NCBI GenBank assembly: GCA_002269645.1
Contig: NIVC01001450.1
Location: 124,001 to 188,000, forward strand
Direction of reading: 5' to 3'
Length of the DNA: 64,000 nucleotides
Source of the DNA: Macrostomum lignano
Lineage: Eukaryota
Both the position numbers and the translations under genes were made by a program. The notes beneath the pieces are model-generated. The model saw only the letters and a program-made list of their open reading frames with translations. It was not told the origin of the DNA and ran no database searches. This document shows positions 6,460 to 46,066 of the stretch, piece by piece; the first letter of the stretch is position 1; each line of letters begins with the position of its first letter.

Positions 6460-11543
<5,084 letters not shown>

Positions 11544-20192: not shown

Positions 20193-21157
20193 TAGGCACT
20201 AGGACATACTGGTACCCCACCTGCATAGGCGGTAATCCCCCGGTGTCCGCTCCTCTCCAACAGTTGTTGGATACACTGTGCGTCTCGACAGTCCTTGCGA
20301 CCACTTTGCAGTACGGACAACCGTGGTGGCCATTATGTCCAACAGTGGCCGTTATTAATGATCTGAATTTCAGATGTAAAAATAAATTTGCTCTCATGCT
20401 CATTAATCATATTTAATTAATAATTATATTAGAACTTAGAAGATAGATACAGTTGATTCGCGTTTTACCATGATTTAATATACAAACCTTGCGGGGGCAT
20501 CACAGATGAACCGGACATTGGCGATACGAACTAGGATTCGGTTGACCAGCACGAAGTCTGCCATGAAAGCCGCCATCTCATTGCAGAATTGCGCCAGATA
20601 TTCTTGCAGAGGTGGTTTGCCGATCCTCGCATAAACTGAATGTTCATAAAAAATGATAGTTATAGTTTATAAGAAGAGATGCTACATTATAGACAGTAGC
20701 TTTAAGTGAATAAAGCAAAATGCAATTTTTACCTGCCACCGGAAGAGGACGGCTGGAACCGTTGAACAACGCCAAAATCAGCCAAGCGGAGAAATTTGAG
20801 GAGTTGTACAGTGGCATTCCGTCTATGCCGATTTTCACGTCAATTTCATAGCCCTGTGTGCCGTCGGCTAAGATGGTCGGGCTCGGCAGAGTGATCTCTC
20901 GCTTTTGTAGCAGGAAGTTGAGATTGGAGGCAATCCCGAGGTAGGCAAAATGGCCGTTGCCCATTTCGTGCTTCGAGAAGCCTCCTTTTTTAGCAGATCC
21001 GGACATGTGCGTGAGCAGGTGCACAGTCCTTGCATTTAGAAGAAATTCCATTCCTCTGATTGGCACTTTATACTTCAAAAAGAAGACCAACAGCTCTTCG
21101 TTCAAGCTCTCCAGGCTTGGCTGCTGTGGCGTGTCGTCATCGGGCTCGGGCTCTCGG
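19660..21157 (-). pseudogene. EnSpm/CACTA-type transposase remnant with introns
   Basis: IGIDGMPLYNSSNFSAW, ICDAPAR, GHNGHHGCPYC, DAMHLVYLGV, PSEFQRRPR...FKATEFRTFILY, scattered over several frames. Confidence 0.8.
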
Positions 21158-22699
21158 TAATCGACCTGAACGGCGGCTACTTCCAAATTCCGATGAAGCC
21201 GGAAGACAAGCAGAAGACGGCCTTCAGCCCAGGGCCTGGAATGCCGCTGTACCAGTTCAAGCGGATGCCGCACGGCGTCTGCGGCGGGCCGAGCTCGTTC
21301 ACCATCCTAATGAACCGCGTGTTCAAAGGCGCCGCGCAGACCTTCACCTACATGGACGACACGCTGTGCTTCTCCAGATCGAAGGCTGAGCATCTCCGGC
21401 ACCTGCGAGAAGTCTTCGAGAAGATCAGAGGCGCTGGGCTCACCGTCCGAGGCAGCAAGTGCCAGCTAGGCCTGCCGGAGGTCACTTTTCTCGGCACCGT
21501 GTTCTCGGCCAAGGGTGCCACCGTGAGCCCTGAGAAGGTGCGCGCTATCCAGGAGTGGCCGATACCGCATTCGCCAACGCAGGTGCGGCAGTTCCTGGGC
21601 CTCTGCAACCAGTACAGGAAGTACGTGCCGAGATTCTCCGACATCTCCGGGCCGCTGCACAGACTGACGAGCAAAACAGAGAAGTTCGAGTGGACCAGCG
21701 AGTGCGGCACGGCATTCCGACGTCTCAAGGAGGCCCTGCAGCAGCCGCCGATCATCGGCCACCCGGATTTCTCCAAGGAGTTCCAGCTCTACACGGATGC
21801 CAGCAACACCGGAGTCGGCATCGTGCTCAAGCAAGGAGACCAGGTGATTGAGTACTGCAGCAGAGCGCTTACGGCACCGGAGACAGGAGTGCCTGGCTAT
21901 CCTGCACGCCCTGAAGACCTACAGGCACTACCTGCTTGGCCGGCACTTCACGGTCTTCACCGACCACTGCCCGCTCACGTTTCTGAATTCTCAGCGGGTC
22001 GACAGCCATGGCCGGCTTGGGCGCTGGCGGTTGCTGCTGCAGAAGTTCGCCTTCACCATCAAGTATACCAAGGGCGTCGACAACGTGGAGGCGGACGGCC
22101 TGTCCAGGATGCACGAAAGCCACGGCGAGGTGATCGGAGCGTCGGCAACGGAGCTACAGCCGAAGGTGTCCAATCAGGAGATGCGGCAGGCGCAACTTGC
22201 CGATCGGAAGCTCAAGCTGGTCCTCGCGGCGCTGGAGAAGGACAGCACGACGCCACCAAGATGGTCGGACACCAGCCTGAGACACCTCAGCCGCATCTGG
22301 CGGAAGCTGAGGATCCAAGATGGCTTTCTCTGCCGGGCATTCAACGACGCCGCAGGACCGAGAGACATTCCTGTGATTCCGGAGTCGCTGCGGCGCCAGT
22401 TCCTGACCGACTTCCACGAAGGCATCGGCGGCCACTTCGGGCCAGAGAAGATGGCCGATACGCTGAAGCAGGCCGCGTACTGACCGGGACTGCAGAGCGA
22501 CGTGGTGAGTTTCTGCCAGGAGTGCCAGACCTGCCAGCTAAAGAAGGCGCAGCAGCGCCCCGCGGCCCCACTTGGAGAGATGCCGATCGGCAAGCCCTGG
22601 CAGACTGTGGCCATCGACGTGCTGAAGGTGCCGCTGTCAGACCGCGGCAACAGCTACCTGCTAGTGATGCAGGACCAGTTCTCCAAGTTCCTGACCGCC
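21158..22699 (+). pseudogene. pol: Gypsy pol internal fragment (RT, RNase H, integrase N-terminal half), no LTRs
   Basis: IDLNGGYFQI, YMDD, LYTDAS, FTDHCPL, NVEADGLSR, H2C2 finger (H..GGHFG...C..CQ), VAIDV. Frameshift near 21885 and TGA at 22481. Confidence 0.9.
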
Positions 22700-23638
22700 T
22701 GATTGCCGATTTCTACGCGAAGGAAGGCGTCACGCTGGACAAGGTCGAGCCCAACCCAGGACTTCGCTTTGTAGCGAAAATCTTTTTGAATTCGTAAGTA
22801 ATCATAAATTCTGTTTTGTAAACGATTTCTTCTACCAACAGTAACCAAATCTTTTCACAGGCTCTGGGGCAAATTCTGTCAGCGTTACGAGTGACGACCT
22901 GACATCGATTGAAATTGTGTCCAGCTACGAGGACTGGCTCGCCCGGCTGACCGACCCCAACCTCAAAGTCAAGGCCTGCGAACCGATTGGCAGCGAGTTT
23001 ATGTTGCTGGAGTATCTGCACCGCTACTTTAATCAGCGGCCGTTCCGCTACTCCAACGTGCCAATCGGTGTCTTTACGACCACGCAGGCCCGGCTGCGCC
23101 TGTACGAGGCCTTAGAGGGTCTCGGCGAACGGGCCATTTACTGCGACACCGACTCGTAAGTATTAGCTGGATAAATTCTTTTAGAATTGATTGCATGTAA
23201 ATACTTGGCATGTGGAACTAATTGCCTATTTTCTCTCCCACACACAGGGTCGTTTACCGGCATTCCGAGGGCCAATGGGAGCCGCCCCATGGCACGAGCC
23301 TCGGAATGTGGACCGATGAGGTGCCCGCAGGCAGCCGGATGACCGACTTTGTAAGTAGAGGGCCTAAGCTCTACACTTACATTGTCGAGGATGCGGCCAG
23401 TGTCCGGAGCCAGGTCTTGAAGTGCAAGGGCATCCGCCTGACTCCTGAGATACGGGAGCGCAGTGAGGACCTGCGCAACACCCTGCTACACGGTGGCTCT
23501 CTACAGCTGCCACAACTACAGTTCAGGCGCAACAAAGCGTCTTGTACCATCCATACGATCAATATGGACAAGACGTTTCAGCGCGTCCTGACGAAACGCG
23601 TGTACGGGGCTTGCAGCAGGCCTTACGGTTATAAATAA
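22700..23638 (+). pseudogene. polB: Polinton/Maverick protein-primed DNA polymerase B, C-terminal part, with two GT-AG introns
   Basis: After splicing: AKIFLNS|LWGKFCQR and IYCDTDS|VVY, plus GPKLY, KCKGI, KRV...PYGY*. Introns 22794-22860 and 23156-23247. One frameshift near 22885. Confidence 0.88.
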
Positions 23639-24492
23639 TGTAGTCCTTGTGACTGACTATTAAATTTAAATTATTGTATTGTTAAATTTATCAGAGTATA
23701 AAAATCTATTTGTTGTACATATTTTGCATGTCAATTAATGAAGAGGAACCGACTATACAAATGTACATAAAGCATTTTTGTATTGTATGTGGCGAAATTG
23801 CCAATTCATGTAAAAATCTATTGTACATATTTTGCGTGTCAGACTTGTTTAAAATCATTTATAAAGAGAAAATTATTGAAAAACAATGCAAAATATTCTG
23901 TATATTATATTCGCTGGTAATGTTGTACATAAATAATTTCATCTAATATGCTACTGATTTATTGTAAATACATATTCTTTTTAAATACTGTTTGTGAATA
24001 GTTTATACATATACGATGTGAGTTACACAATTAGTTGACTCATTTGGTAGTAGGTGGGATCGTACAGCTGGCACGCGCACACCGACCCACCTCTGCGCAA
24101 TACTGCGCTGTACACGTAACAATTAATGTTTCGAGTTGAAATTGTACATATAATCTTGTGGGGTTGACGATTCAAATATGCAAGAGCGGGGGCCGTCTGG
24201 GGATTAATGTAGGACACTGTACATATAGAAATTGTCATAGAAATAGATTATTGTACATGTAGAAGTATGTACTGTGTTATATATCGCGAAGCCGAGAGGG
24301 TTATATCTTCTATAGCGCGCAGTCTGATGAAAATAAAGCTCAGAGGGCGTGGCCGTCTCTCTAGGCCGTCAACGTGTATTTATACCATAGACAGTACTAT
24401 TCATATAGCCCAAGCTTCAGTGTCACCCACATGCATATGCACACTCATACACAACACCTCCCCCCTTCAGTTACAATGTGACTTCTTGTCAG

Positions 24493-27400
24493 TCAGTCGT
24501 ACGAACTTTTGCGGGGGTCAATCTGAAGCCTGTTGGGTGGCCGACGGTTTCTCGTATGCCACGGTCTTGATCGTCCTTCGGGCCCTCTGGCTCCATTCGT
24601 ACCTTGCGAGTCCGCAGGGCCAGTATTGGGCTGGTAGCGAGCTTCTGCCGCATGTGCTGGAAACCTTCTCCGCAGGAACTTCCGGTTTCTCCGAAGAACC
24701 CGGCCGCTGGTCAGCTTGACTAGAAAGTCGTTGTTTTTCATTAGCTCGACTACCACGCCGTACTTGTCCCATCGCTTGGTCTGGGCGTCCTGCACTGCAA
24801 CTCTGTCTCGCACTCGCAAGGCTGGGAGTTGGTGAGCTGCTCTATTGTAGTACACCTCCATCCTCTCCCTCTTCTCCGCTGCCCTGTTGTCCACCTCATC
24901 TGCTGCTGCTTGCCATTCCTTGGCGAACGCTCTCCAGTGAACTGGCAGGGTATCGCGAACCTCGTGACCGAACACCATGTGTGCTGGTGACCTGCCGTCG
25001 TATCGCGGAGTGTTGCAGTACATCAGTATCCCCTGGCAGAGATCGTCCCAGTTCGGCTCTCTGGCTCCGTGATTCCAATTTCCACGCACCAGCTTTTTCA
25101 TTGCCTTGACGGCTGCCTCCGCTCGCCCATTGCTCTGAGCGTACGTGGGGGATGATGTCCTCTGCTCCACATTCCAACGACGCAGGAATCCCAGAAATGG
25201 CTTGGCTGTGAATTGCGGTCCATTGTCTGACCATAACACCTCCGGCGCGCCCTTCTCACAGAAACGTCTTCGCAGCACGTTGATCACCTTGTACGTTGAG
25301 GCATCAGTTCCGAAGTAGTCTAGTGTTGGCCAACCAGACTTTCCGTCCACAGTCACCAGGAACATCTTCCCAGCGAATTGAAACAAGTCGGCATGGACTT
25401 CTTGAAAGACGCGTTCCGGTTCCTTTCTCACAACCATCGGCTCCTTTACTTGACTAGGCAAAGTCTCTTGGCACGGGATACACTTCCTGGCTGACATTTC
25501 TATATCGTTGTCGATTCCCGGCCAGTAGAAAGTCATTCTGGCTCTCTCTTTCATCTTAACGATTCCCTGATGCATCTTGAGCATCCTATTCATGACTTCT
25601 GCTCGCATCTCCTTGGGAATGAGCAATCGCCTTCCTACAACGATCAAGTCATGCTCGACTGCTAGTTTGTCGCGGATGTCCCAAGATTGTCTTAGATGGA
25701 CCGGTACGTTTCCCTTCTCGTTAGGGAATCCTTGCTGAACCAATCGCTTCAGCTCCTGGTACTCCTGGTCTCTTCTGGCAATCCGCGTCAACTCTGCTTC
25801 AGAAGCTTGAATCTCATCGATAGCCATGATGATATTGCTGTCGTGCTCCTCCGCAATTTCTTCGTCCTTGGTTGCCGGCTCTACCGGGGCTCTTGACAAA
25901 GCATCGGCGGCTTTGTGGTCACTGCCTTTCACCCATCGAGCCGTGTACTGAAAGCAATCCAGTTTCTGTCGCAACCTCTGAAGCCTCGGATTCTCGATCT
26001 GATCCAAGGTGTATCTATTAAAAATCGGCTCCAACGGCTTGTGGTCGATGATTATCTCAAAATTCTGCAGTCCTTCGAGGAACAGACGACATTTCTTTGC
26101 CGCCCATACGACTGCCAACAGCTCCAGTTCAATCATGGCGTATCACCTCTCTGTCTCCGAAATGAACCGCGAGCCTGTTTGAACCACTTTCCAAATGCCA
26201 TTGTTTTGCTTTTGCTTGAGCACGAATCCAAGCCCCTTCAGTCGAGACGCATCCGTGTGCAGTGCTCTCTGCCTCGTGTGGTCATAGTAGGCCATTGTAG
26301 GAACATTGCTTAGTTCTTTCCGCATGCTGTCAAATGCTTTTTCGTGTTCGCAGCTCCACATGAACTCATTCCTCGGTTTCAACAACTCTCACAACGGCTC
26401 ACCGAGGGAAGCTATCTTGTCACTACAGAACCCAATCTGATTCACTAGTCCGAAGAACGCTCTGAGGTCGGTCAGATTTTCTGGCTTCGGGAAGTCTCGA
26501 ATCGCCTTCACTATGGCAGGGTCTATAGCGTAGCCTTTCGAGTCCAACTGGAATCCGGCAAATGTCACACTGGGCTGAGCAAACGCAAACTTCTCTGGAT
26601 TCAGGCTGATGCCGCAGTCCCTGCATCGCTGCAGAAACTCGCGAACGGCACGGCGATGCTCGTCGAAGTCGCCGTGAGCCAGCAGTACGTCGTCCACAAT
26701 ATGATAGGTGCTCTTCAGTCCCTCTAGCACTTCATCCACACGCCTATTGTAATGCTCCGATATGGACGACAGTCCAAAGGGGGCACGTAGGAACTTGTAC
26801 CGTCCGAATGGTGTGATAAAAGTTGTCAGTATTTGTGACGCGTCATCCAGCGGCACTTGGTGGTATCCTTTCGTGGCGTCAACGGTTGTGAAGAACCTGG
26901 CGCCCTTGTGTACACTTGACACAACTTCAAATGGCGTTTGGCTGACGTAGCGCTCTCGGATGACGTATTTGTTTAAGCACCGTAGGTCGACGCACATTCT
27001 TATCTTGCTCTGGCCTTTCTTTGGCTGCACGGTGATCGGCGCACACCATTCCGTAGGCTCTGTGACCTTTGCTATGATCCCATCTCGCTCGAGATCCTCC
27101 AGTTCCTTCTTGAGTTGTAACTTGAGCGGTTCCGCAATTCTTCTCGGGGTCGAAATGGCAAACGGCTTTGCGTCCGCTGATAGTTTAATTCTGAACATCT
27201 CACCAGCCCTTCTGCCAACTTTTCCGGTGAACACGTCCGAAAACTCTTTTTTTAGGTCCTCCTCTGTGCCAGCGTTGGTATCGTGCTGATTCATACTTGC
27301 CACGATTTGCTTTGGAAAGTTTCTTGGAATGATACCCAGATCACGACACGCGACACGACACGACACGACATAGAATCATGATGGATATTCCGCTGAGGAC

Positions 27401-27590
27401 GTGAAACGTACACTGCAGCTCAGTCTCACCCATGGATACTTGCAGCTGAATCGAGCCCTTGGCTTTTAATAGCCGGCCGTCGACTGCCTTGGGTTTGATG
27501 TCTGACGGATGTAGGTTGTTCATATCTGCTCCTACTATAGGCAGCAAGCTCTCAGGGATGGCATCTATGAAAGCGCCTGTGTCCGGTAAG
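24493..27590 (-). pseudogene. pol: Pol of the Mag-like element (protease, RT, RNase H, integrase), disrupted
   Basis: LPDTGA (frameshifted), DATKGYHQ, IVDDVL, HTDASR, DHKPL, ADALSR, HADLF, SDNGPQF, SNGRAE. In-frame TGA at 26389-26391 and 26143-26145; (CACGA)n expansion at about 27345-27370. Confidence 0.9.
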
Positions 27591-28557
27591 GCGCGATGGT
27601 CTTTGTTCCGTCAGGGGTGCGAATTTTTACCTCCACACAGCATGCTGAGGTCCCTTGTGCGCCAGTTGCGGCGAAAATTGAGTGGACTCTCTCGCCGTGC
27701 TTGGCTGACTGTCCACTTCTGCACTGCTTAGCGAAATGGTTGAGCTTGCCGCACTTTGTGCACGACTTCCCCCAGGCCGGACATTTCTCTTTGCCGACCT
27801 CGTGCTCTCGTCCGCAGAACTTGCAGGCTTGACCAGGATGTTTCGCCCGGCTCTGTTGAACAGGTCTTCCTGCCTGTCGATTCTCCGCGGCTCCAGTCCG
27901 CTTGGCCTTCCGATAGCTTGACGCGTGTCGCACAGCGGAGACGGTCGGTGTCTCGCCCTTCATTATGGCGCAGTTTTTCCTCGAACTCTCCATCGACTCA
28001 CAAATGGTCTTTGCTTTCTCCAGCGTTAGCTCACTGCCTTCCTCTAGCAACTTCTCTACAGTGCTGGGGTCGCGCAGTCCCATGACAATTCTGTCTCTGA
28101 GCTGGTATTCGGCGCACCCGTCACAGCATCGCTCGAAGTTGCACCTGGACGAGATTTCTTTGATGGACACGTACCAATCATTGAAGCTCTTACCTTCTGC
28201 TTGATTTCGTAGCCAGAATTCCCTCCTCTCGAATATCTCGTTCTTCTGCCCGGTGATGAATGCTTCCAGGGCCTTGATGATCTCCTTGGCGTCGTCTTTA
28301 TCCTTTCCTAGTAGCTGAGGTAAGCTGTCCACCACTCGTAGGGTCTCCAGACTCAGGCAGTGTCGCAAAGCGAAGAGTTGGAACTTCTTCTCGGCCTCTT
28401 GCTCGATGTCGTTCAGGCCTGATAGTTCCTCGAAAGCCTCCCACAACTGCTTCCATTGTGGGAATACGGCCTTCTGAGATTCGAGGTCGAAGTGTGGAGC
28501 GCTTTTTAAGTCAATTTTCGGCTTTGGAGGCATTTCTACAGGAACGCCCCAGAACAA
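27565..28557 (-). CDS. gag: Gag of the Mag-like element, two Cys/His knuckles
   Basis: QLRDRIVMGL...LTLEKA; CKFCGREH...CPA..KSCTKCGKLNHFAKQC. Confidence 0.85.
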   Translation of the reverse strand: MFWGVPVEMPPKPKIDLKSAPHFDLESQKAVFPQWKQLWEAFEELSGLNDIEQEAEKKFQLFALRHCLSLETLRVVDSLPQLLGKDKDDAKEIIKALEAFITGQKNEIFERREFWLRNQAEGKSFNDWYVSIKEISSRCNFERCCDGCAEYQLRDRIVMGLRDPSTVEKLLEEGSELTLEKAKTICESMESSRKNCAIMKGETPTVSAVRHASSYRKAKRTGAAENRQAGRPVQQSRAKHPGQACKFCGREHEVGKEKCPAWGKSCTKCGKLNHFAKQCRSGQSAKHGERVHSIFAATGAQGTSACCVEVKIRTPDGTKTIAPYRTQALS

Positions 28558-30199
28558 TTGCAGCTCTGCAATCTTGCTCTTGCTTAGCCTTGACTTCTTA
28601 TTCGTGGGCTTCTTCTCTGGCTGCTTGCGAAGCCATGTTATATATCGCGAAGCCGAGAGGGTTATATTTTCTATCGAGAGGGTTAAAGCTCAGAGGGCGT
28701 GGCCGTCTCTCTAGGCCGTCAACGTGTATTTATACCATAGACAGTACTATTCATATAGCCCAAGCTTCAGTGTCACCCACATGCATATGCACACTCATAC
28801 ACAACATACTGTACAAGTAGAAAATTTACATATAGAATTGGGGTAGACATAGAAGTAGACAACCCAGTGGGAAAAAACGTTCCGCCTGACGTTCCGGCGA
28901 CCGTCTGTTTTTGGTCGGGCGACCGGATTTTAGGCGGTATTAATGTCCGCACGCCTGGCGCACCGGGCAGGCCCGCCCCGGGCGACTGTTATAGATATTT
29001 TTAGCTTAAAATCCTTTCAGTCTACTATTAGTAGCATGTGATGAAATTGCATGAATCTGATTTCTAGCTAGCTGCTTCCCATTCCCGCTTTCCGCTCGCT
29101 ACCCGCTCCTCGCTACCCGCTCCTTGCTACCCGCTCCTCGCTACCCGCTCCTGTCCCACTCATTCATGTGTTACTACGCGTTGAATCGCTTATGCCAGTA
29201 CGTCACATCAGCAACATAATGGAACTAGTATGCCCTGTATGAGAGGCGTAAATGTTTTATTTAAGCTAGCATTTTCGATTGTATTTATAATTTTAGTAGT
29301 AAAATAAAAATTGCATCTAATATTATGGAACATGCAACATAAAGTTATGACACGTGTTGGGCTGCGCCCTTTCAGTGCGTATGTACTCGTACTTGTGTTT
29401 TCAGTTTTCATGCCACCCCGCCCCGTCCCCAGTCTCGCGCCCGGGCCAGGGTTTGTGAGAGGCGTAAGTCTCAACCCTGGCCTAGCCCTTTGCACCCAGC
29501 CCCCCGGCCCAACCTCTGTCCAATCTGGGTGCCGACCCCACCCTCTCCCTCGTTGCCCGCCTCACCCTGGGGCTGCGCGTATTGGCTGGCTGGCTGATAA
29601 GCCGGCTGGGCCCCAGGGTTTGGCTCGCCCTCTCCAGTCTGCCCCACCCCGTTCCCCCTTTTTTTGTGTATTATTTTAAGGCTAGCCCTGAGCGGGCTGC
29701 GCTCCACGCGCTTCGTTCTTACTGTTTTTTTCGTTCTTCGGCGTACCTCTGCCCTTTGCGTGCCAATAACTGCTTCGTGCCAATAACTGCTTCGTGCCAA
29801 TAACTGCTTCGTGCCAATAAACGCTTCGTTAATAACTCGATACATCAAGAAGAGGTGAGCGCGTGCTTTCTTCTTTCGGGTTGCCGCGTGGGGCCGGATC
29901 TGTAGGGACCTGGGACCGGTGAACACTCGCTGATCCCAGGGTGGTCGGTCAGGCGAACTCTCGCCGAACCGAGCGAGGCGGTCGTAGGAGTAGCCGGGGT
30001 AGAGGGCTGGGACCGGGGTGTCTCAGGCGGGAGGGCCCGAACCCTGACCCGTCCAGCGGCCATTAGGCCGAGACACAACACACGCAAGACATGGCATAAA
30101 TTAAAGTAAAAAGTGCGAAGCTCAAATGTAAAATCTAGTAAAGTAATGCATTTTTCAGTTCAGGGGATTTCACTTTCAGTATAATAAAGAAAGTTTTCA

Positions 30200-35270: not shown

Positions 35271-36308
35271 AGCTGAATGCTATGGAAATTTGTTTGCTAG
35301 GAATACCCGTTTAGCGCATTAGGTATTTCGATTATTTATCTTTGAATGTTTCTTCTTTTATGTTTGCTACGGAATATCTCATGAAGTGAAATATATTTGT
35401 ATTTTTATATTTTTAGGAGAGAGTTAGCGTTTTCAATTCTGCATTTTTTCGAGCTTGAACGTCTTGAGTCTGGGTTATGAATAATTCATTTCTCTGTTGT
35501 TCCTAAAACAAATACAAGACTATTAATACCAGCTATTTCATTTTTGAAGCCTTTCATTTGCACGAAGTGTCAGTTGTTTGTTGCCACCTGCATTCAGTAT
35601 TTAGAATCAAAAGCAAGATATATATATATATATGGAAACCTAAAGACGAACTAACTCTACATCTGTTCATGGGGCTATACGGGCATACAGATAAGATATC
35701 GGCTGTGCTCCGCTACCTCAGAGCTCAGACACTCAATCATCCTGTCATAGACAGTTTTATGGCAGGAAGACTGTTTTAACCGCAGGCCCTTATCGAAAAA
35801 TATATGGTCTGTTGCGCGGACCCGTGAGTAAGTAAGCAACTGGACACGGGGGCAATGCTTCTCCCTCCGTCTTTCCCCCCAGTTGGGGGCTTGGGGGTCT
35901 TTGTTCCACGAGGGAACTTTGTTCTTTGTTTCTTTTTTTCCCTTATTGTAAATGTATCTAAGAAGGCGCATTTCCAACGAATTGGGTTGATCACTTCCAA
36001 ACCTGCTTATCAAAATCGAAACTGCATTTTTATTCCTTGGTCTGTTGGGGCTGACTGGGAAATTGAAAATTTTTTGATAGGAAAAAAGGCAAATTGGCTA
36101 AAACTAAAAAACAATGGCTCTGTGAACTTTTTATGCAAAAGGCTTGCGATGGTATGAATGTCTCTCTCTTTCCCTTCTCTTTGTTCTGTCACGAAAATCT
36201 TTACCGGAGAGACACAAGCCTCATTTAAGGCTTGTAGATAACATTTGACATGAATTTCTAACTCAGTGTGCGTGTGCACGCTCTCGAAATGCACAAGCAT
36301 ACAGTGGA

Positions 36309-39211
36309 GTGAGTGGACTCACTCTGACTCACTGCCCAGTGCCCCACTCAAAAGTTTTTGCCCTTGCTCCTACCCTCTGCTCTGATTCCATATCCTCTCC
36401 CCTGCTCAAAAACAACGAGAACAATTTCATACCACATGTTTGTTTTCCTCTCCTCTCCATCCCGGGAATTATGCGCTTCGAAATGTCAGCTGGCAAAACA
36501 CGAGCCCCTGGAAGGATGTCTTATCCAAGACACATCTTATCTGATGTTCTGACGATCACCAAAGAGCTGCGAGTCTGCAGCTTGCACTTCCTGTCTACCG
36601 CCTACAACTGCCCAGCTTTAAGACACAGTGCCGGAGCACGGCTGCGCTGGGACGCCCTTCCAGACCTCGAACTGACGATGCCTCGCTTGAGTCGTTACGA
36701 TATCAAACCAGTGGTAGCTAGAAGTGATGAAGAAGCGGATAACACCTACCCACCTCAGCTCGAGCGCTGGGACAAAGATCCAGTAGCGGTAGCTATGCCT
36801 CATTTAATTCTGTCTACGCAGTCTAGAAATCAGTGTGTTGCAAAATCTGCCATAACCGCTGGGCATAGCAAGACTTTAGTACAGCTAAGAAAAACACGTC
36901 AGCGCGTGAGCAGACAACGAGCGACCATCAAGCGTCTGCAGCAGCAAATTTGCAAGGCTAAGGGGATTAAATTCAGAAGTACTCCAATGCGTCGTATGGC
37001 CTCAAACAGCAGGAAGCTTCACTTCATCGCAGCTCGCGGCATGAGATGGTCAAAGGATGACCTCACCGCTACAATAAGGCTCCACCATAAAAACCCGGCT
37101 GCATACAGGATGCTCAGAAAAGATTGGCAGCTACCCCTTCCTTCGGAGTCTGCACTCAAGCGCCGGACATGTCAGTTCTTCAAATCGCCAGGAGTCTGCT
37201 CAACAACTCTGATGCTGCTGAAACAGAAACTTGCCACAGGCCCAGAACATCAGCGAATAGCAACCCTATGCTTCGATGGGATGAGCCTATCACCTAGCGT
37301 TCGCTACGATCAACACAAAGATAAGGTCATCGGCTTTGACACAAGCAGCTCCACTGAAAATGCTCAGCGAGTTCTAAAGCCTATCACGGAAGCCATCGTT
37401 GCTGTTTTGCGAGCCGTTTCAGCAAACTGGAAGCAAGCTATCGCCTATTACCCAGTTCATCGAACTCTCGGACAGTCGGGCTTTGCCGCTGCAATCGAAA
37501 ATTGTCTCCATGCGAGTCATGCTATCGGTATTCGAGTCATTGCTCTTGTTGCTGACCAGGAGACAACACAGTGGGCACTACTCTCTCGAATGGTAAGTTA
37601 GTTATTTGGCTACTAACTTGTATTTGTGGGACTATACGAGGACTATATAGTCTATACGGGGACTATATCGATATAACTAAATCTGAAATATCATTTACTG
37701 ATTTACAAAATTTCGAGTAATTAAATGAAAGCTAAATCGCCTAAATGTGATTTGCAGGTCTCACCATCTGCGCCTTTTTTCGTCACCCAGTGAGCCTAAA
37801 GCCGGTGTATGTGATAGTAGACATACCACATTGTCTGAAGAATCTACGCAATGCGCTTATGAAAAACGATGTGGCTTTTGACGGAAACAAACTGGCAAAA
37901 TGGCAGCATGTTGTGGATTTTTTTGAAGCCGATCGTAGCCGTTCACTTCGATTGGCAAGTCGACTTACTGACGCTCATATCGCCCTACCGCTTGGACAGA
38001 AGATGCGCGTGTCTATAGCAGCTCAAGTGCTCAGTCATTCAGTTGCCAGCGGTATGCAAACTCTTTTGCATTATCAGGAAATAGAGCCCAGCGCTTCGCA
38101 GACGGCGGAGTTTCTACAGCGCGTAAACGATCTGTTCGATATGCTGAACTCCGCAATAGTGCACGACAAAGGCTTCAAGCGGCCGATCTGCCGCGAGTCG
38201 CTAGCTGCACAAACTAACGAACTGCGCAAAGCCGAGGCCTTTCTGCAGAGCTTGCGATTTTTACCGAAAAGCGGCAAGCCTGAAAAGTCGACTATGAAGT
38301 TTAAAGAAGCTTGGCGCCTTTCAGCTGCATCGATTCGTGAGCTCTCAACTGCGCTGATCGACGAGGAGAGTTTCGACTACGTCTGCACTCGCAGTCTGAC
38401 TCAGGATCACGTGGAAGTGAGTTGTAGAATAATTTTAATGATAATAAATTAAAATAGCGAGTTATCAATTAAATATTCAAAAAATGGCAACGTTTTGCAG
38501 AATCTCTTCAGCATCATAAGAGGCCGAAATGGTTTCAATGAGAAGCCCGAGCTGGCAGCATTTGTCGGAGCATTGAGATCAGTGGCAGCTAGCGGACTTG
38601 ATCGCCCTGATTCTGCAGCACGGAATTGTGAAGACGATGGGTGCACTGCGGCTGTGACAGCCAATCTTTCGCCTGCTGCTGCAGACACGAGCTGCGCATC
38701 TCCAAGCGACTTTCCTACGACCAGCATTGCTCAGCAGGCATCGCAGCCATCTCAACCAGATCCTATTCTTGCTGAAGCCACTAAGTACGTCGGTGGCTTT
38801 GTGCTCAAAACAAGCCGTGTTCTGGAATGCTGTGCATGCAAGCAGGTGCTAACTGCCGCAGAGCCTAGAGGTGTACACCTAAAGAACAAGCTATTTAGCC
38901 ATGCAGTCAACGGACTGACGCAGCCTTCAGCTGCTGCCCTTCATGCGTTTTCAAGATTGGAGGCGTCTTTTTTAGAAAAAATTGAAACATGCGCTTTGCT
39001 TCCAAAGGTGGCTGCACAAATTGTTAGCAAACTCCTGTCTGATGAAATCCAATTTCCGGCTTGCAGTGCACATTTTTCTGATGTGCACAACAGTATTGTC
39101 TTGGCATTTGTTCGCTTGCGGTTGCATCATTGGTGCCGGGAAAAGATGCGCAGCTTGAAAGCTGCTGCTTATAAGCGGTGTGCAGTTCGCAAAGTAAAGA
39201 AATTTAATTAA
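36309..39211 (+). CDS. THAP-domain P-element-type (THAP9-like) transposase, three exons; start uncertain
   Basis: THAP-like CSLHF...LRWDALP. Catalytic CFDGM, VADQ and QDHVE|NLFSIIR; DIPHCLKNLRN; QKMRVSIAAQVLS. Introns 37593-37757 and 38417-38500. One base missing in a T-run near 37780. Confidence 0.85.
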
Positions 39212-43987: not shown

Positions 43988-46066
43988 CTAGAATTAGAAG
44001 CAATTAGAATCCGGATATTTAAGCGTTTTTTCGTGTAGTCGACGAAAGCTTTCAAAACAAGAAATCGATTTTTTATCACGACAAGTCAGCCGCCCCGAGC
44101 GACCTTAAGGCGACCGTGAGGCGACCGAATGAAAGTGCATAAGAGCTTAGGAAAAACATCCAAAGTACCATTTTTTGCTGAAAATGCTCTCTAGATTGCA
44201 ATTAAAGTACTCTAAGAACAAACTCCAAAAATATTTGGGCGATCGTTTGGGCGGCGCCGCCCGCAGTCGCCCCCAGTTTTTTCCCACTGGGAATGTACAT
44301 ATACAATTTGAGATAGATAGGGATTAATGCAAGTACATGGGATTAATTTACATATGCTAGTACATATAGAAATATGCTATGTATATGTATATCACGTTTA
44401 GGATAGCGTTTTCATATACTACTTACTTCATTTTGAGATAGTAGTATAGTTTGCGTTTTTTGCGTCAAAACATCTGAAAACCCAGCAGTTTCTGCGCATT
44501 ACGTAGTCGCGCGGTATTTATATACCCACAGAATCAGTGCAGTAAAACAACTGGTAGACCTCTTGTCACACATATACGGTAACCAGTGAAGCATGAGTTT
44601 CCAGTGAATTAATTTCGCACGTTAGTATGATCTCAGAAGTCATTAGTAATTAATACTAATTAGCGTAATATAAACGATGAATTCTAGGAGCCCTACCACA
44701 CTTAGAACTAGGCCCCTAGTTTTCTTTTCAATTTCAGATGGGTGGGCAGCAGAGAAAGCAAAGCACGACAGTCGGGTGAACGATAGTTACCAAATTCTTG
44801 TGTATTTACATGCAGTTTATTTTGCCGTGCAAGAAATGATGCATTGCTTAATTTTTTGAGTTTATTAAAAACTTCAGTGTACGCAGGCCTAGCGGCTTAA
44901 ATCGATCAATCAATTCGTCTGCAAAGTAACTTACAAGCTTACAGGTGATCGATGTAGCTTTATTTCGTTATCGGGATCATGATTTTTAGACTAGATGTGA
45001 TGTGGATAACTGCATTACATGTATATCGCGATTGCACTTGCATGCCACTCGGTCACACCCGCTGCATAACTGCAGAGCATACCTACAGCACAGTCCTGTG
45101 ATATATTACCATTCAATCTCTATGGATACTGGATAATAATGAATCACAGAGGTCCCAATTATCATAGTAAATGCACTATCGATAAGACAATTATATGTTC
45201 TTTAACCTCCAGCTCGATTTATAAGAAAATCGAATGTAGCGTCCTACTACTCATGTACTCCATCAAGAACTCCGCGACCCATTCCGCGGCGGCGGCTTCA
45301 GCATGCTGGCAATCGACAAAACGCCGAGTACACGCCTGTCCCCGTCAGTGGGGTGCCTGCAGTGTCAGCGGCAGTACGACTGGTCTCCAGCTGGAGTCGC
45401 CGACAGCGCAACAGTTGTCCATGGATAGCTGTTACACACAAACATTGCTAGTCAACCAGAAGCTGCCGGTATGTAGATGCTGTAACTACAAGTTTTCTCT
45501 GTCTGTCAACTGACCCGCGACATCTTACAGAAAAACAACTATTTGCTTCGCAGTTGACATGTAGGACTAGCTAAAGACCTAACAAAAAGGAAGATAAGTT
45601 GAAAGGGTCGCGCGAATTAGCACTAGAGAGCCAGCAGAGAAAGAGCAGAGTGCTTGAATTCATGCCGATCGGCCCTCTGCATCGGCATCGCCTGTCGTGA
45701 CTTAACACTTTGCTTTCGAGCTTTCGAGTGAGTGAGTGAGTGAAAGTCTTGACAACGCGGAATTCAAGGAGGGAGCGGCGCAACAGCCTTTAGGAGAGAA
45801 AATTCGTGTGAGGGAGTAGAGATGGAAATGGAAAGGGGGAGGCTGAAGACGCTGTTTGGAGCCCCGGGAAGAAAATTAAATTTCGTCTCCGGTCCGCTTT
45901 TATTAGATTCTGACCGGCTCGGTTCGGCTGCATCGCCTCGCCTCTCAGGGCTTCGGTCGTAGGTCATTTGCGCCCTCCATTTTCTAGTGTTTTATTTTTA
46001 GTGTATTCAGCAGCGCTTCCGGCTACTCTGCCATCTTCATCAGTCTCTGTCGATACCAGTGCTTTG

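Follow-up and report, generated by a model that had tools for sequence, protein, structure and literature searches.

GT-AG introns in the catalytic motifs of a broken protein-primed DNA polymerase gene from a Polinton-derived element of Macrostomum lignano

The gene for the protein-primed DNA polymerase of family B (pPolB) from a mobile, reduced Polinton derivative in the flatworm Macrostomum lignano is split by introns in its catalytic motifs. Polintons, including those with a VSR-type pPolB2, are already known; the new observation is the spliced, motif-split polymerase in such a derivative. The starting point was a stretch of 64,000 nucleotides (contig NIVC01001450.1, positions 124,001 to 188,000), referred to here as the window. 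We hold it very probable that the window contains GT-AG introns in a broken pPolB fragment of a Polinton-derived element. The complete reading, in which the introns came to lie in the motifs through targeted gain at nuclease-cut sites, falls a little short of an even chance, and gain at nuclease-cut motif DNA, taken by itself, is put forward tentatively.

The window copy carries two inserts (67 nt, 30% GC, and 92 nt, approximately 35% GC), which are AT-rich by contrast with the surrounding coding DNA (50 to 66% GC). Both read GTAAGT...CACAG in phase 2 and interrupt a Ser codon (TC|G), the first in polymerase motif B and the second in motif C (Table 1). An earlier note on this DNA stated that exact removal of the inserts restores motifs B and C. 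Removal did restore these motifs but not an open reading frame: a frameshift near the beginning of the middle exon leads to a stop (positions 22892 to 22894), so that splicing alone yields no open frame there. That note also missed the truncation of the copy, which comprises only the last approximately 310 codons of pPolB, and the additional intron in motif A described below. Neither the 5' part of the gene nor the left terminal inverted repeat (TIR) of this copy was found in the window or in the 70 kb upstream. The window copy is a dead, frameshifted 3' fragment.

The polymerase gene is abutted and truncated at approximately position 22700 by a Gypsy fragment that is not part of the element. 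Two stretches downstream of the gene match consecutive parts of one sister TIR, and this colinearity makes it likely that they are a single TIR parted by 20 kb through later insertions. Between the two halves lie P-element/THAP9-like transposase fragments with TNP-like RNase H and GTP-binding domains (positions 36249 to 39211). The window also holds a Gag fragment (1302 to 2546), a LINE with reverse transcriptase (RT) and RNase H (8380 to 11543), and, on the minus strand, a broken LTR retrotransposon (24493 to 28689), and minisatellites are abundant in its right half.

Table 1. Polymerase fragment and adjoining features of the window
Positions	Strand	Feature	Basis
21040..22700	+	Broken Gypsy-type retrotransposon fragment (RT, RNase H, integrase zinc finger)	Pfam
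22700..22793	+	3' remnant of pPolB exon ending in motif B; 5' gene part missing	Sequence reading
22794..22860	+	Spliceosomal intron, 67 nt, phase 2, in motif B	Counterpart in sister copy L003 skipped in contigs of runs X1, X5
22861..23155	+	pPolB exon, motifs B to C; frameshifted here	Open in 28/30 copies; dN/dS 0.052
23156..23247	+	Spliceosomal intron, 92 nt, phase 2, in motif C	L003 counterpart skipped in contigs of runs X1, X3, X5
23248..23638	+	Last pPolB exon, open; PYGY-type tail, then stop	dN/dS 0.118 among copies
23639..24060	+	AT-rich 3' non-coding part of element	84% alike to sister copy L026
24031..24253	.	Right TIR, inner part	85% to left TIR of L046, positions 2350-2122
44292..44507	.	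Right TIR, outer part, ending ...TACGTAGT	Match to sister TIR

A DNA search of the same genome, in which 40 of 111 candidates were scored, gave at least 42 matches at 85 to 91% identity besides the window copy. Among 30 copies of this family (family A), the motif B intron (67 to 78 nt) started with GT in 29 and GC in 1 and ended with AG in all 30, and the motif C intron (74 to 92 nt) started with GT in 28 and ended with AG in all 30. The phase 2, TC|G introns of 67 and 92 nt reported in motifs B and C by the earlier note are thus borne out, with splice ends kept in 28 to 30 of the 30 copies. Intron lengths drift through all three phases modulo 3 while the splice ends are nearly invariant, and 28 of the 30 copies have an exon of 288 nt between the two introns. 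Where a copy extends to motif A, as 26 do, that motif is interrupted by a third motif intron (81 to 88 nt, phase 0; GT in 26, AG in 25), whose splice context and phase differ from those of the motif B and C introns. The 5' part holds three further GT-AG introns, which a search with anchored patterns recovered in 7, 13, and 12 of 17 stretches, and the gene model comprises seven exons and six introns.

The introns show the traits of the U2 type, namely GT...AG ends, an extended donor consensus, a pyrimidine-rich 3' end, and a drifting interior, and several copies carry TACTAAC upstream of the motif B acceptor. Indels amounted to 1.7 to 3.9 per 100 nt in introns versus 0.07 to 0.33 in exons. The dN/dS ratios among distinct exons of equal length were 0.128 (n = 8), 0.052 (n = 19), and 0.118 (n = 19), with many copies being near-duplicates and the pairs not independent. 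The exons are under purifying selection. Given their lengths of 67 to 92 nt, group I or group II self-splicing introns are unlikely. No open reading frame or nuclease gene was present in the motif introns of any copy read (65 to 144 nt across both families described here), and the class of spliceosomal homing introns (shintrons) was rejected because no intron encodes a homing endonuclease. The motif introns are also mutually unrelated, with local alignment scores within the shuffle range in 9 of 9 comparisons, which argues against an introner origin. The motif A intron of family A (L003:984-1065 and its sisters) has 0.034 substitutions per site versus a dS of 0.16 to 0.19, and at its start the terminal words AGTAGT and ACTACT form a short inverted repeat, which is absent from family B.

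Splicing was examined in assembled contigs of sequencing runs aligned to sister copy L003. Runs X1 and X3 (study P1) and X5 (study P2) are RNA by guess rather than by record, and X15 is larger and DNA-like. Contigs skipped the motif A and motif C introns at their GT..AG ends in X1, X3, and X5, and the motif B intron in X1 and X5; no spliced joint at the motif introns occurred in X15. The short side of most joints was 21 to 29 letters long (71 in one), and unspliced contigs occurred beside spliced ones in X1 and X3. The check for spliced reads that the earlier note proposed was therefore positive for the motif introns in these presumed RNA runs, and no joint at the three 5' introns was seen among the matches listed in a second contig alignment. 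These results indicate host-type splicing of the three motif introns in sister copies, in probable RNA.

A second family (family B) has approximately 60% amino acid identity to family A and the same element ends. Its introns occupy the same six positions with unrelated sequences and were present at motif A in 29 of 30 copies, at motif B in 27 of 30, at motif C in 9 of 9, and at the three 5' sites in 8 of 9. The three N-terminal introns have thus survived the split of the two families. In a quick tree, families A and B formed one long-branched clade (SH-aLRT, 100); the backbone of the pPolB tree did not resolve, and outside loci L285 and L324 were left out of it. An intron-free version of the gene was not found, as the outgroup query matched only families A and B among the 38 scored of 435 candidates. 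The joined contigs and the six positions common to both families uphold the proposal of an intron-bearing, Polinton-type pPolB lineage that depends on nuclear splicing.

The polymerase gene belongs to a multi-copy element of 9 to 10 kb with long TIRs (approximately 0.5 to 1.4 kb) and the ends 5'-ACTAC(G/T)...AGT-3'. Target duplications of 6 bp flanked 10 of 11 pairs in family A and 6 of 6 in family B, as well as further ACTAC-ended elements (8 of 8 and 8 of 8). The starts of the TIRs are 99 to 100% alike between loci, and a family B TIR word had 201 exact matches in the genome, compared to 0 for the control. The element shares a protein-primed PolB, long TIRs, and a target duplication of 5 to 8 bp with Polintons. 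It lacks the integrase, capsid, packaging ATPase, and 13- to 25-kb length of Polintons, as well as the 5'-AG termini that are the rule for them. The only gene besides the polymerase is a divergently transcribed PC4-like open reading frame, which occurs regularly in family B and in 3 stretches of family A, a paralogue of which passes the Pfam cut-off.

A profile of 18 integrase open reading frames was blank in 31 element stretches with a positive control, tblastn found no integrase in the element stretches apart from nested neighbours, and queries for capsid and ATPase had no match inside elements in 118 stretches. The full Polinton with the same introns that the earlier note proposed to seek through capsid, ATPase, and integrase genes did not appear, as none of these genes lies inside the element. 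Capsid, ATPase, and protease genes are not expected, since 9 to 10 kb leaves no room for them. An ACTAC-ended partner with integrase and capsid was likewise absent from 20 + 20 + 8 TIR-anchored stretches, out of approximately 100 family B-type elements and with 40 candidates scored per search. The element is a mobile, reduced Polinton derivative that works as a non-autonomous element, and we do not file it as an autonomous Polinton. Capture by a CACTA transposon, at which the ends hint, is ruled out by the 6-bp duplications and the absence of a transposase.

The polymerase matches PF03175 (E, 1e-27), with phi29 polymerase as the best PDB match. A profile comparison matches the insert that separates its exonuclease from its polymerase domain to E. 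coli Vsr (E, 5e-5). Comparison by fold also gives Vsr, followed by the homing endonuclease I-Bth0305I (E, 0.01 to 0.1); Pfam alone did not call a Vsr domain. A Vsr-like nuclease domain within the polymerase, a trait of VSR-type pPolB2, is thus present. A search of IMG/VR with the flatworm polymerase protein gave no match.

Also common in this genome, with 73 capsid matches, are full Polintons that have capsid, ATPase, and integrase genes. These encode a polymerase of another class or a D5 primase, as well as Endonuclease VII domains. All readable ends of integrase- or capsid-bearing Polintons are 5'-AGTAG rather than 5'-ACTAC, and no trans-acting integrase with ACTAC ends was found among them. 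Genome-wide Pfam searches missed the A32 ATPase and protease genes that the genome does contain, so these blanks are uninformative. One AGTAG-ended family has a 95- to 112-nt, phase 0 GT-AG intron near the start of the integrase gene at 23 of 30 integrase loci (L181:5865-7288, G000:C592; L203-L227), away from the catalytic residues, and several of its copies keep capsid and ATPase remnants with the polymerase present only as fragments. In a capsid-bearing family (L081-L088, L095-L096), F5/8 lectin domains accompany a PLA2-integrase, an A32 ATPase, and a D5 primase-helicase, and no pPolB was seen within 10 kb.

Numerous ACTAC-ended elements are non-coding palindromes of 3 to 9 kb with 6-bp target duplications and are up to 99% alike between loci (L346, L361-L364, L366-L368, L051, L056, and L067). 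They look like products of snap-back replication that may still be able to integrate. One short ACTAC-ended derivative contains a dUTPase gene (L053:3974-4588).

We additionally compared intron positions with conservation. Measured against 125 outside homologues, 3 of the 6 flatworm introns, those in the motifs, lie in 7-residue windows that rank among the 3.3% most conserved (P of about 7e-4 for three or more of six, calculated post hoc). Equally conserved windows of the 867-amino-acid exon (exonuclease and GGR blocks) are free of introns. The whole polymerase domain of 88 outside loci (80 from metagenomes and 8 from viral contigs; 36,595 aligned residues) was then scanned for breaks and insertions. 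Motif A was contiguous in 76 of 78 covering loci, the others having one intron and one small deletion, and 2 of the 88 loci carried an intron in motif B. Motif C was intron-free in 80 of 80 loci, a site under-sampled by one retrieval pattern that required an unbroken motif C. The three GT-AG introns are a 124-nt intron in a Ser codon of motif A, adjoining an ATPase gene (L285:768-891), and two in a Trp codon of motif B, one of 90 nt in phase 1 (L266:3551-3640) and one of 75 nt in phase 2 (L324:963-1037). Loci L285 and L266 hold further introns outside the polymerase domain.

All three polymerase-domain introns of the outside loci thus lie in motif A or B. They fall within the top 1.6% of the domain, and P was about 5e-4 when the looser threshold set by the flatworm introns (7.9%) was applied. 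Their distances to the flatworm sites are 5, 5, and 6 nt, and their phases are different. The comparison across relatives that the earlier note called for therefore agreed at the level of motifs A and B and disagreed at the level of exact bases. Judged by position and phase alone, the introns point to independent gains, suggesting recurrent, motif-targeted intron gain in pPolB. The earlier argument for a single gain mechanism from the common TC|G context was not sustained. A 3-nt context shared among six introns arises by chance approximately 21% of the time (P of about 0.21), the motif A intron differs in context and phase, the introns are unrelated in sequence, and a proto-splice site is AG|G, which TC|G is not. 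Position is more telling than context: motifs A, B, and C each hold an intron, and in outside lineages the same motifs are interrupted at other bases.

In the explanation that we prefer, the element would be transcribed in the nucleus and spliced by the host, and its polymerase would copy it by protein-primed synthesis from the ACTAC ends, with the PC4-like protein, where present, probably serving as a single-strand-binding helper and integrase borrowed in trans. The numerous ACTAC-ended non-coding palindromes, as snap-back replication would yield, count in favour of this explanation. More tentatively, sequence-specific nucleases of Polintons might cut the DNA of the catalytic motifs, the few stretches beyond recoding. 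An intron might then be gained at the cut site, by homing or as a repair scar, and would be kept since it splits the nuclease site and is spliced out without cost. We favour gain at nuclease-cut sites because the polymerase and the co-resident Polintons carry homing-type nucleases and because spliceosomal homing introns are known from mirusviruses. The lack of an intron-encoded nuclease and of a depleted cut word (in both families, the long exon contains every 4- and 5-letter palindrome) counts against the nuclease step, and the three introns kept in the poorly conserved N-terminal part count against targeted gain. A broader scenario appears doubtful to us, namely, that Polinton polymerase genes repeatedly gain introns in their catalytic motifs because nuclease warfare among co-resident Polintons drives homing or shielding at unrecodable DNA, the flatworm outcome being a capsid-less, integrase-less, splicing-dependent replicon that would be a segment or satellite of a divided Polinton.

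The main rival, which we rate as unlikely, is a retention ratchet. Introns would land anywhere, and their imprecise loss or drift into coding sequence would be tolerated only in variable regions, so that motif introns become trapped. This is the logic usually given for inteins. It accounts for a motif bias at differing bases with neither a shared word nor a nuclease, and it suits an element that replicates fast and sheds genes. However, the introns in the variable N-terminal part outlived the split of families A and B, and the equally conserved windows of the 867-amino-acid exon hold none. Two other readings are less likely. Tissue- or stage-specific splicing, for which the P element is a precedent, could limit the polymerase, as any retained motif intron kills the enzyme. 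The occurrence of spliced and unspliced contigs together in X1 and X3 and the unusual conservation of the motif A intron would fit such a switch. A stop-bearing intron would, however, serve at any location, the splice sites are consensus-strong, and splicing rates cannot be read from the contigs, some of which may be DNA; we regard this reading as improbable. Ordinary intron gain in a long-resident nuclear element, with the motif bias due to chance and detection bias, is hardly more credible. The integrase intron of a Polinton in the same genome, away from catalytic residues, is in its favour, as are the introners entering dinoflagellate Polinton-like elements according to the accessible text of PMC11957031, the small numbers (6 + 3), and the post hoc nature of the first statistic. 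Against it, the outside set is an independent sample with 3 of 3 introns in motifs, and breaks and insertions were scanned along the whole domain. Domestication of a Polinton polymerase as a host gene, raised by the earlier note, would explain the multi-exon structure, a TATA box, and spliced transcripts. It is largely refuted and very improbable: at least 40 dispersed copies have TIRs and their own 6-bp target duplications, and many copies, including that in the window, are broken.

The premise that Polinton core genes are described as intronless held in the available text of two sources. Core Maverick genes of nematodes, polymerase included, are termed "intronless," with introns only in captured host genes (10.1101/2022.07.12.499685), and endogenous viruses are said to "not contain introns" (PMC10120064). 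Group I introns are described in PLVs (PMC12220804, accessible part). Our literature search, whose scope was papers, brought up none that deals with Macrostomum Polintons or with spliceosomal introns inside the motifs of a Polinton polymerase; Repbase and supplements may already annotate such introns. Surveys based on open reading frames, which in the available text of PMC10120064 assume intron-free core genes of Polintons and endogenous viruses, would score lineages such as that of the flatworm as broken or miss them. Independent gains piling up in three short motifs offer a direct test of targeted gain versus biased retention, and the family bears on the standing question of the origin of new spliceosomal introns. 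The element may be seen as a Polinton reduced to a nucleus-bound replicon that is still spreading.

Inteins and self-splicing introns sit at the conserved motifs A, B, and C of family B polymerases. The flatworm introns resemble them in lying in these motifs but are host-spliced. As in the mirusvirus shintrons (PMC12768974, as far as its accessible text goes), GT-AG introns occur in conserved viral core genes. Shintrons encode a nuclease, of classes including VSR-like and HNH, and are mostly in virion genes, whereas the flatworm introns of 65 to 144 nt encode nothing and are in the polymerase. Dinoflagellate Maverick-Polinton-like proviruses (PMC11957031, available part) also have spliceosomal introns inside Polinton-like elements. 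Their introners are young, repeated transposons mostly gained after integration; in contrast, the flatworm introns are mutually unrelated, old, and passed on through transposition under selection. Spliced genes within a Maverick-type element are common to nematode Mavericks and the flatworm element, but to judge from the accessible text of 10.1101/2022.07.12.499685, the polymerase itself is split only in the flatworm. The closest likeness is to the VSR-type pPolB2 Polintons of a marine nematode and a mollusc, described in the available text of 10.1101/2023.08.22.554363, with which the flatworm element has in common a protein-primed PolB, a Vsr-like insert, long TIRs, and 6-bp duplications. The flatworm element is 9 to 10 kb rather than 13 to 25 kb long and is without integrase, capsid, ATPase, and probably protease, and it ends in 5'-ACTAC, in contrast to the 5'-AGTAG of the co-resident full Polintons. 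It further differs from the VSR-type pPolB2 Polintons in having six spliceosomal introns, three of them in motifs A, B, and C.
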